Assembly: GCA_001724265.1 (NCBI GenBank)
Contig: MEDY01000257.1
Coordinates: 1-64,000 of the forward strand
Length of the DNA: 64,000 bases
Direction of reading: 5' to 3'
DNA from: Rhizaria sp. SCN 62-66
Taxonomy: Eukaryota
Shown here: positions 41,225 to 42,894 of the stretch, in pieces
How positions within the stretch are numbered: position 1 is the stretch's first letter
How the letters are laid out: each line of letters begins with the position of its first letter
The notes under the pieces: model-generated
Told to the model about the DNA's origin: nothing
Database searches by the model: none
Seen by the model: only the letters and a program-made list of their open reading frames with translations
Program-made: the position numbers and the translations under genes

Positions 41225-42894
41225 ATGAGTGAGATCCTTAGTGGACTTATCGCCAGCGCCAAAAATGTTGTTTTCAGGGTTGATACTGACAAGGTCGTAA
41301 CGAAGGAAGCAGCGTCACTGATGAACGACGTACAAATCATCCTGGGTACGTGTGAATCGTCTTGCGAATGTCATTTCAGCAGTGCAACCACATAGACAAC
41401 AATTAATTGGCACTTAATAATAACGTTATTATTGTATTTCATTGTGTATTCCGATCGTAGGAGTCCTCAGCGCGATGAGTCCGCCTCACGCCCAAAGCAA
41501 CATGACGACACTTGAACAACTTCGGGAGGTGCTCCGCGCAAGTCAAAAATTTGTGAATAAGGCTGAAAGTCGTGGCGCAGTGGCTCGTTTTGTGTTTGCG
41601 GGTAGCATCACGAAAGATCTCGAGTCCCTTCGTCAGTCTCTTGACAAGATCAAGCATTAGCTCGTCATCTCAAGAACTGCACTCGCTGAAATGGATCGCG
41701 ACATTGACGAAGCGCACTCCAACAACAGCAACAGCAGCCAAGCAGCCAGTGCAACGCACACCTCTCCGCAACTGATGCCGCCAATGCTGATGTTTAGTGA
41801 CTTCCACATTGCTGGACTTATCGCATGCGAGGACTGTGCAAGTGTGTACAGAGCACTGTACGTGCCAACTGCCGCCAGCACTATCGGGTCCCTTGAGTCT
41901 CTGACTGCAAGAGCAGTGGTATTGAAGGTGCTCAATGGCACTGATGTCGCGCTGTTACACGACAACACTGTCAAGCAAGAGCTTCAAAGGCGCTACTCGC
42001 TGCGGCTACCGTCCGTCGCACGCTGCCACGGGCTCACTATCGTGCCTGACGGCAGACTTGCAATTGTTATGGATGTTGCGGGCGGATCACTTGCTGACAT
42101 GTTGGCTCGTGAAGCGTATTACCTCGACATGCCAATGCAGGGCCGCGTGTGGCTGGCGCAGCAGGTGAGTCACGCCGTGTATAGCCTCGCGCAGCGAGAC
42201 ATCGTGCACTCCGACATCAAACCGTCCAGCTTCTACTGGGTTGTCGCAGGACGTGAGGACTCTGGCACCACCGCTGTTGTGAAGATCTCCGACGTGGGCG
42301 ACTTGAGTCTGCAGACAACAGTGTGCAGCATGTCACAACACGCAACAAACTCACGTGAAGGTACGTCTTTGCACAAACTCGGCATATATTGCTCTGATAA
42401 CGCATCTGCTTGTGTATCATTCTCATGTTTTAATTGACACGTACTTATTCTTTGCTTCTATAGCGACAGTCACGGACGCACCCGTCTGGCTGGCACCTGA
42501 GCTCTTGACGGGAAAGTCTCTTCCCACCCTCGCAACGGATGTGTACGCGCTGGGCATGCTGCTCTACGAGATCATCTTCAGCATCAGGCCCTTTAAGGGC
42601 ATGTCGAGCGCGCAGGTCCGCGAGATTGTCCTTGCTGGCGGGCGCTCCTCATTGAACCTCGACGACTATGACGGCGACGCGTATCCTGCGTTGCGGTCCA
42701 AGCCGACGCCGGCGATGCTCCAGCTCATCGCGGACTGCTGGGCCGCGGATCCAGCGCAGCGCCCGACGGCCAGCAGCGTCGTGAACCGACTCATGGGCAT
42801 GAAAAGCGAGGAGCGTTATGCACGACAGTTTATGCTTGAGATGCAAGGTGTGCAGACTCGCTAGCGCATTCGACGCGCGGCGAGTGAAAACTAA
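41225..42894 (+). CDS. MLKL-like protein (N-terminal four-helix bundle plus TKL-type pseudokinase); exons 41225..41345, 41461..42360, 42464..42864 (or 42894); in-frame TAG at 41658..41660. Recoded gene or recent pseudogene.
   Basis: Two phase-1 GTACGT...TAG introns give one frame: MSEILSGLIASAKNVVFRVDTDKVVTKEAASLMNDVQIILGVLSAM...LEQLREVLRASQKFVNKAESRGAVARFVFAGSITKDLESLRQSLDKIKH*LVISRTALAEMDRD..., followed by kinase motifs VVLKVL, HSDIKPSS, KISDVG, WLAPE, DVYALG, CWAADPAQRP. A second TAG at 42862 is followed in frame by RIRRAASEN-TAA (42894). Confidence 0.78.

Follow-up and report, generated by a model that had tools for sequence, protein, structure and literature searches.

Within a 64,000-nucleotide (nt) stretch of DNA filed under Rhizaria sp. 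SCN 62-66 (GenBank contig MEDY01000257.1, positions 1 to 64,000 of the forward strand; hereafter the ‘window’), a three-exon gene on the plus strand carries a candidate MLKL_N-like domain followed by a protein kinase domain with degenerate catalytic motifs, and its reading frame is interrupted by an in-frame TAG at codon 107. The meaning of that codon is the subject of this analysis. The gene is laid out as follows, in coordinates of the window, with the basis for each feature given at the end of the line.

41225..41345, plus strand: exon 1, starting with the ATG at 41225, 40 codons plus one base (open reading frame (ORF) and gene model; joined to exon 2 in a complementary DNA (cDNA) contig of sequencing run X6).
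41346..41460, plus strand: intron 1, 115 nt, GTACGT...TAG, 36% GC (junction present in one contig of X6).
41461..42360, plus strand: exon 2, which completes the MLKL_N-like domain, contains the TAG and a linker, and carries the kinase N-lobe as far as the DVG motif (model and profiles).
41658..41660, plus strand: the in-frame TAG, codon 107, followed by C (window sequence, gene model and independent copies).
41691..41693, plus strand: first ATG past the TAG, in frame, 10 codons after it; start of the gene-caller ORF P0003.
41820..41855, plus strand: degenerate glycine-rich loop, IACEDCASVYRA, where the relatives have GG[YF][AS] (alignment).
42207..42239, plus strand: catalytic loop HSDIKPSSFYW, where the relatives have HGDIKPLNFLW, with Asn changed to Ser (alignment).
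42288..42302, plus strand: SDVGD in place of the relatives’ SDFGN (alignment).
42361..42463, plus strand: predicted intron 2, 103 nt, GTACGT...ATAG, 37% GC (sequence, composition and continuity of the kinase profile; no joining contig).
42464..42864, plus strand: exon 3, with the kinase C-lobe, WLAPE at 42487-42501 and the terminal TAG at 42862-42864, again followed by C (model and profile).
42892..42894, plus strand: next in-frame stop, TAA, nine codons past the terminal TAG (sequence).

The three exons give a coding sequence of 1422 nt, divisible by three and comprising 473 codons before the terminal TAG when codon 107 is counted as one of them; there are thus 106 sense codons before the internal TAG and 366 after it. 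Around the site (41649-41672) the sequence reads ATC AAG CAT TAG CTC GTC ATC TCA, and the ATG at 41691 lies in the same frame, such that the TAG is continuous with the kinase ORF, as the initial annotation had stated. Downstream of the TAG, the frame of the gene contains no stop in 366 codons, as against 7 to 18 stops in the other five frames of the same DNA. Gene callers nevertheless report two separate ORFs, one ending at the TAG (P0006/P0105) and one following it (P0003). The same annotation had credited both introns with intact splice sites: for intron 1 this is borne out by a junction joining 41344/41345 to 41460/41461 in the X6 contig, with GT..AG ends, whilst for intron 2 it extends to the GT..AG ends and to the kinase profile, which runs up to about position 143-147 of 258-263 before the intron and resumes at about 160-169 after it. 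The three introns seen in the window (at 41346, at 42361 and, on the minus strand, at about 61472) all start with GTACGT or GTACGA, and each is AT-rich and about 100-135 nt in length; cDNA confirms one of them, and the other two follow from profile continuity.

The TAG is a genuine codon and not a sequencing artefact. The metagenome contig L001 (Joint Genome Institute, 2638 nt) matches positions 40536-43173 without a single mismatch, TAG included, and a scan of metagenomes for the locus recovered one locus only, identical to the window. Contigs from four of the 17 listed runs, drawn from three studies, were compared at the site: X3, which may be the window’s own source; X4, from a second study; and X5 and X6, from one sample of a third study, with the library described as RNA-Seq cDNA. 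None of these contigs carries anything other than TAG there, with the proviso that contigs can mask minor variants, such that a rare second allele or isoform is possible. The X6 contig has intron 1 precisely removed, retains the TAG and extends to 41662; the X5 contig is unspliced, runs unbroken from 41570 to 42261 (692 nt) and likewise includes the TAG. The gene is therefore transcribed and spliced, as seen in the spliced cDNA-library contig of X6. Intron 2, the flanks and 41663-41683 are listed as lacking cover in the X5 and X6 contigs, and missing cover was not counted as evidence; nor was contig depth used to rank expression.

Since both the spliced X6 contig and the unbroken X5 contig retain the TAG, it is not spliced out in the assembled forms. 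Equally, the 15 GT sites in exon 2 up to the TAG (41461-41660) offer no donor beginning GTACG, GTTCG, GTAAG, GTATG, GTGAG or GTAGG, in keeping with the earlier remark that no GT(A/T)CG donor lies just upstream. We also considered a very small intron that would use GTCAGT (41632) or GTCTCT (41636) as donor and end with the AG of the TAG itself, and discarded it: at 29 or 25 nt its length would not be a multiple of three and would fall far below the roughly 100-135 nt of the three introns seen in the window. With the same TAG in L001, in four runs and in an exactly spliced cDNA contig, both a base-call error and removal by splicing are rejected; the suggestion that the codon had been misread from CAG or GAG is accordingly ruled out.

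By profile score, the region downstream of the TAG belongs to the protein kinase superfamily (PF00069 / PF07714). Exon 3 reaches 48.8 bits with PF00069 (cut-off 31.7), and the part of exon 2 after the TAG scores 29.0 bits with PF07714 (cut-off 23.1) and 30.4 bits with PF00069, just below its threshold. Compared with other kinases, among them ULK, RIPK1 and CTR1, MLKL is no nearer a match for this region. Read across its motifs, the window copy has ACEDCAS, VVLK, HSDIKPSS and DVGD, where the relatives that cover these positions have GG[YF][AS], VALK, HGD..K..N and DFGN, single changes among the latter being HRD in P0010 and DFGT in P0009 and its cluster mate P0109. We take as the sequence signature of a pseudokinase the loss of at least one of the glycine loop, the VAIK Lys, the HRD Asp, the catalytic-loop Asn and the DFG Asp. 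The window copy shows such loss and the eight other family members used retain all of these elements: the glycine-loop GG has become ED, the catalytic-loop Asn is Ser and the DFG Phe is Val, whereas both Asp residues (of HxD and DFG) and the Lys (VVLKVL) are kept. The ‘pseudokinase’ label given by the initial annotation is thus supported in part, by the first three positions and not by the three retained ones, and the gene is best described as a putative pseudokinase, probably already catalytically dead.

The pattern of these changes was quantified by a leave-one-out count over nine of the 14 rows of the family alignment (A1), omitting the cluster mates P0104, P0107, P0109 and P0111 and the short fragment P0044. 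In the eight other members 37 columns do not vary, and the window copy agrees with them at 31. At the remaining six it shows the changes G>E, G>D, A>V, S>L, N>S and F>V, four of which (G>E, G>D, N>S and F>V) affect glycine-loop, catalytic-loop or DFG positions. An intact member, P0005, also scores 31 of 37, with conservative changes lying outside the glycine-loop GG, catalytic-loop Asn and DFG columns. The gene is, in addition, weakly biased in its codon usage: its 40-codon segments score about 3 on average, whereas 354 segments from the 17 confident ORFs of the window have a mean of 22.7 (5th percentile 1.8), and its GC content at third codon positions is 0.52-0.77, compared with about 0.85 in its neighbours. 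The weak bias is seen before the TAG as well as after it, and so belongs to the gene as a whole rather than reflecting decay behind the stop.

The N-terminal region is harder to name. The Pfam family MLKL_N (PF22215) has a curated cut-off of 27 bits; the part of exon 2 before the TAG scores 18.8 bits, and P0001, P0004 and P0014 score 16.6, 18.4 and 24.8 bits respectively, all below the threshold and all in the same profile register, with the P0014 match covering profile positions 2-108. A profile of four N-terminal regions (A2) compared with solved structures returned, as the best of 22 matches, mouse MLKL (4btf_A, residues 60-129) with an expectation value (E) of 0.0045, other MLKL entries following at E 0.83 to 3.8 (human MLKL N-domains at about 1). 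In the ESM Atlas, the top clusters retrieved with the 65 residues before the TAG are nameless, and MLKL_N appears on 10% of members (Oomycota) of a cluster at rank 25 with a score of 0.87, which we treat as a lead only. Exon 2 was also modelled with AlphaFold2 from alignment A1, with X standing for the TAG and exon 1 omitted. The mean predicted local distance difference test (pLDDT) score is 53.5, the helices at 7-36, 46-64 and 68-79 are of low confidence, and the quality does not suffice to locate the TAG within a fold; a BLASTP comparison of exon 1 with P0014 gave nothing meaningful, its match (E 0.12) being to the ARM region and not to the P0014 N-terminus. The four-helix bundle (4HB) assignment made earlier thus seems reasonable but weak, the best structural match speaking for it and the sub-threshold MLKL_N scores against it, and we do not assign the domain to the Pfam family. 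On this alignment, the TAG falls at about position 107 of the 142 in Pfam MLKL_N and at about residue 115 of 4btf_A, which would put it inside the last helix of the N-terminal bundle and not at a domain boundary.

What the column holds in other family members bears directly on the fate of the codon. A HMMER scan of 1.84 billion representative proteins gave 101 matches at E <= 0.001, ten of which reach 1e-10, and the close matches besides the window’s own ORFs are fragments of metagenome ORFs at 36-48% identity. One of these, P0004 (46% identity), is matched over query residues 16-293 in a single stretch, straight across the TAG, and in a gapless alignment the column is occupied by T in P0004, N in P0008 and I in P0014. 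An N-terminal region and a kinase share one uninterrupted frame in P0004/P0104, P0008 and P0014; in the window gene, this MLKL-type two-domain architecture is interrupted by the TAG at codon 107. The three relatives that cover the column carry ordinary sense residues, and the stop is therefore not conserved in the family. The initial annotation had judged the position polar and suited to Gln; with T, N and I in the relatives the column is variable and nothing about it is specific for Gln. It had also called for a comparison with paralogues. Within the window, a tblastn search with the read-through protein matched the gene alone, and when exons 2 and 3 were used in word-based searches of proteins, the window’s own ORFs were the only matches.

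Two further observations concern the family at large. P0014 is a 1627-residue protein from a metagenome-assembled genome (MAG) of Legionellaceae, composed of an MLKL_N-like N-terminus, a kinase, about ten ARM/HEAT repeats and a second kinase; its N-terminal region aligns with the protist family without a gap through the TAG column. The longest contigs of P0104 and P0007 both measure 74,829 and those of P0008 and P0010 both 106,564, which suggests that related organisms carry several copies per contig.

Usage of TAG elsewhere in the window was surveyed across the 17 confident ORFs. Their 14,534 codons contain no in-frame TAG, alongside 537 CAG and 710 GAG codons, and TAG is therefore not an ordinary sense codon in this DNA. 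A wider search considered the 74 TAGs flanked on each side by 40 stop-free codons. In a sense frame, none of them has coding-like sequence both before and after it, and the few that score positively are antisense to known genes. A TAG at 61431-61433, considered as a second in-frame case, was set aside, as it lies inside a GTACGA...CCAG intron of the MTHFR gene. A scan of the window for transfer RNA (tRNA) genes found none, such that it offers no suppressor candidate. The 18 other ORF ends of the window comprise 11 TAA and seven TGA with no TAG, and three further coding-like ORFs (16476, 19028 and 51488) add two TAA and one TGA, again with no TAG. This apparent absence of TAG from the other gene ends underlies the sense-codon reading considered below; a Pfam domain extends to its C-terminal end at only eight of these ORF ends, and some 20 genes are too few to prove avoidance. 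The TAA ends at 2740 and 50876 overlap donor-like strings (GTACGTAA and GTAAGT), and may be intron starts instead of gene ends. Overall, the proposal that TAG is a sense codon here draws no support from the window, in that the confident codons hold no further in-frame instance, but the lack of any other gene end in TAG leaves it a small chance.

The immediate context of the stop is mixed. Both TAGs of the gene (41658 and 42862) have C at +4. Among the 18 other ORF ends this base is the least common in that position (G 9, A 4, T 3, C 2), and in eukaryotes termination is weakest where it follows the stop. A known motif for UAG readthrough is a hexamer of the CARYYA type, which is absent after this stop: the sequence continues UAG CUC GUC, with CUCGUC as the hexamer. 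The 123 nt from the TAG onwards fold no better than shuffled sequence (z 0.46; 135 of 200 shuffles fold at least as well). Neither a context nor a structure of programmed readthrough was found; the C at +4 is the sole favourable element, and the only one to speak for the leaky-readthrough switch that the initial annotation had raised. As regards initiation downstream, five ATGs precede that at 41691 in the spliced mRNA, which makes leaky scanning to the kinase part unlikely.

Synthesising these findings, we favour, at roughly even odds (a probability of about 0.5), a model in which the TAG is a recent nonsense mutation in a diverged paralogue, leaving a young and still expressed pseudogene or null allele. 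The gene would be a diverged member of a small family seen in metagenomes only, in which an MLKL_N-like domain is followed by a protein kinase in one frame, and the window copy appears to be the only member from which the glycine loop, catalytic-loop Asn and DFG Phe are gone. Under the standard code, translation would end after 106 residues, inside the last bundle helix, such that the main product would be a truncated bundle and the 366 downstream codons would be reached only through the slight basal readthrough to be expected where C follows a TAG. A recent nonsense mutation would be the most likely history, and the disabling lesion that a pseudogene should carry is present, in the form of the one in-frame TAG. 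We infer termination at the TAG, the recency of the event and the lack of function in the truncated product; among the options listed by the initial annotation, a recent nonsense mutation is kept as the simplest, its recency belonging to that inference.

Several observations weigh against this model. Beyond the single lesion, the other signs of a pseudogene are missing, as there are no further stops in the 366 codons and transcription persists, as judged from the spliced cDNA contig. The contrast of 0 stops in the downstream frame with 7-18 in the others, together with the GT..AG ends kept by both introns, means that inactivation is either very young or that the downstream part is still translated. 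The kinase part keeps 31 of 37 invariant columns, as many as the intact P0005, with its deviations centred on the catalytic motifs; this would fit a selected pseudokinase better than random decay, although six changes amount to an indication only. The mRNA is present in a metatranscriptome even though the TAG lies some 700 nt upstream of the last exon junction. Finally, TAG ends none of the 18 other ORFs and none of the three further ones, yet it occurs twice in this gene, each time followed by C, a base found at only two of the 18 ends elsewhere.

Some of these points would be accommodated by selected leaky readthrough, by which mostly the 106-residue fragment would be made and a fraction would read the TAG as a near-cognate residue to give a full-length, MLKL-like pseudokinase. 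The rare +4 C, the open frame of 366 codons, kinase fold positions kept as well as in an intact relative, and a transcript that is both present and spliced are all as such a mechanism would have them; the stop, though, is followed by neither a CARYYA-type hexamer nor downstream structure, sits within a domain helix instead of at a domain boundary, and is replaced by sense residues in the three relatives covering the column, so that it is not a family-conserved feature, and we regard selected readthrough as unlikely. A functional split would dispense with decoding of the TAG altogether, in that the 106-residue fragment would work by itself, or the kinase part would be made separately from the ATG at 41691 through reinitiation or an internal transcript. 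Gene callers do divide the gene into two ORFs (P0006/P0105 and P0003), the ATG at 41691, 10 codons past the TAG, is in frame, and the frame behind the TAG is intact. However, the last bundle helix would be cut short in the fragment; scanning or reinitiation should be inefficient behind five ATGs and an upstream ORF of 106 codons (a point resting partly on general knowledge); the Met at 41691 is not conserved in the relatives; and the X5 contig (41570-42261) spans the TAG in one piece, and so no separate downstream transcript start is indicated. Such a split strikes us as slightly less probable still.

It is considerably more doubtful that the TAG is a very rare sense codon, or a nearly unassigned one, within a 483-residue protein ending at the TAA of 42892. 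Here the silence of TAG at the other ends (0 of 18, and 0 of the three further coding-like ORFs) would find an explanation, the window’s only two in-frame TAGs lie in one gene, which is the least codon-biased (about 3 versus 22.7), and a TAA follows nine codons past the terminal TAG. Against this stand 14,534 confident codons with no TAG among them but 537 CAG and 710 GAG, a window devoid of tRNA genes and hence of a suppressor candidate, and a sample of 20 genes, too few to show avoidance, in which only eight ORF ends are domain-backed and two TAA ends overlap donor-like GTACGT or GTAAGT; in the literature listed, UAG reassignment is given for ciliates, trypanosomatids and a syndinean, with no stramenopile in the titles. 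Taken to its conclusion, TAG would have nearly vanished from the genome and would be decoded where it survives in a weakly biased gene, amounting to a new nuclear code variant at the stage of codon capture and to an intact 483-residue pseudokinase, a prospect to which we attach an equally slim chance. As for a base-call or assembly error, or removal of the codon by an unrecognised intron, we found no point in its favour; the agreement of L001 with the contigs of four runs, drawn from three studies, letter for letter at the site, the retention of the TAG in both the spliced cDNA contig and the unspliced 692-nt contig, and the want of a donor-like site of the tested kinds upstream in exon 2 leave it with next to no weight.

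The surrounding genes give some idea of the host. They include DEAH and DEAD helicases, CCDC39, CFAP61, Nup133, a UCH, an ICAT-domain protein and MTHFR, of which four are placed as follows.

10442-13786, minus strand: CCDC39, a ciliary gene.
36741-37418, plus strand: ICAT-domain ORF.
53275-59478, plus strand: CFAP61, a ciliary gene.
60269-62678, minus strand: MTHFR, with its best named matches in oomycetes.

The two ciliary genes, CCDC39 and CFAP61, indicate that the organism is flagellated. Its MTHFR is about 52% identical to the best named matches, which are from oomycetes, and metagenome proteins reach 56%. We would describe the organism as an uncultured, flagellated and GC-rich protist of wastewater reactors, apparently stramenopile-like, only loosely placed and not near any named genome. 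The DNA of the window recurs, letter for letter where compared, in bioreactor and wastewater samples of several studies from 2015 to 2025: all sampled words of the window are present in runs X1 and X2, and next to none of them in the polyA metatranscriptomes X16 and X17.

The wider meaning of the codon depends on which explanation holds. As a nonsense mutation, it would mark an ordinary young pseudogene or null allele, and the value of the case would lie in having excluded sequencing error and splicing; if truly read through or decoded, it would be a cellular stop inside a death-domain-like bundle, gating a full-length and presumably autoinhibited protein; as a true sense codon, it would be the first hint of TAG reassignment in that part of the eukaryote tree. 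The favoured nonsense mutation may be compared with young unitary pseudogenes and nonsense alleles of lineage-specific gene families, with which the gene shares a single disabling stop in one diverged member whose relatives are intact at the column; it differs from them in being transcribed and spliced still, with no second lesion in 366 codons.

Nuclear codes with a reassigned UAG show in-frame TAG in many genes. Such reassignment is described, for example, in phyllopharyngean ciliates (PMC11687900, excerpt). The window resembles these codes in the absence of TAG from its other gene ends and departs from them in having no TAG in 14,534 other codons. Leaky termination at UAG of the tobacco mosaic virus type, like the basal readthrough of weak stop contexts, provides a further point of reference: the gene likewise has a UAG followed by C and a long open frame behind it, but its hexamer is CUCGUC and not CARYYA, no downstream structure is present and the stop is not conserved in relatives.

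With respect to domain architecture, the plant MLKL family demonstrates that the same two-part arrangement exists outside animals and is widespread in eukaryotes (bioRxiv 10.1101/681015, excerpt). Sequence likeness to it is confined to a weak match to the MLKL entry 6lk5_A in the Protein Data Bank (E 3.8), and the organism of the window is an unplaced protist; a literature search on MLKL_N-type proteins of oomycetes turned up no paper among the matches listed. Vertebrate MLKL (mouse, 4BTF) is alike in having an N-terminal helical domain followed by a kinase-like domain with degenerate catalytic motifs. It is unlike in that the MLKL_N scores of the window gene are 16.6-18.8 bits against the required 27, its kinase is no closer to MLKL than to other kinases, its nearest relatives keep all catalytic motifs and its own frame is broken by a TAG in the bundle. 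Quite apart from the TAG, then, the comparison brings into view a metagenome-only family that joins a candidate MLKL_N-like domain to a kinase which appears to be active. The protists that carry it belong near no sequenced group, a look-alike occurs in a Legionellaceae MAG, and the family bears on the evolutionary origin of MLKL-type executioners.

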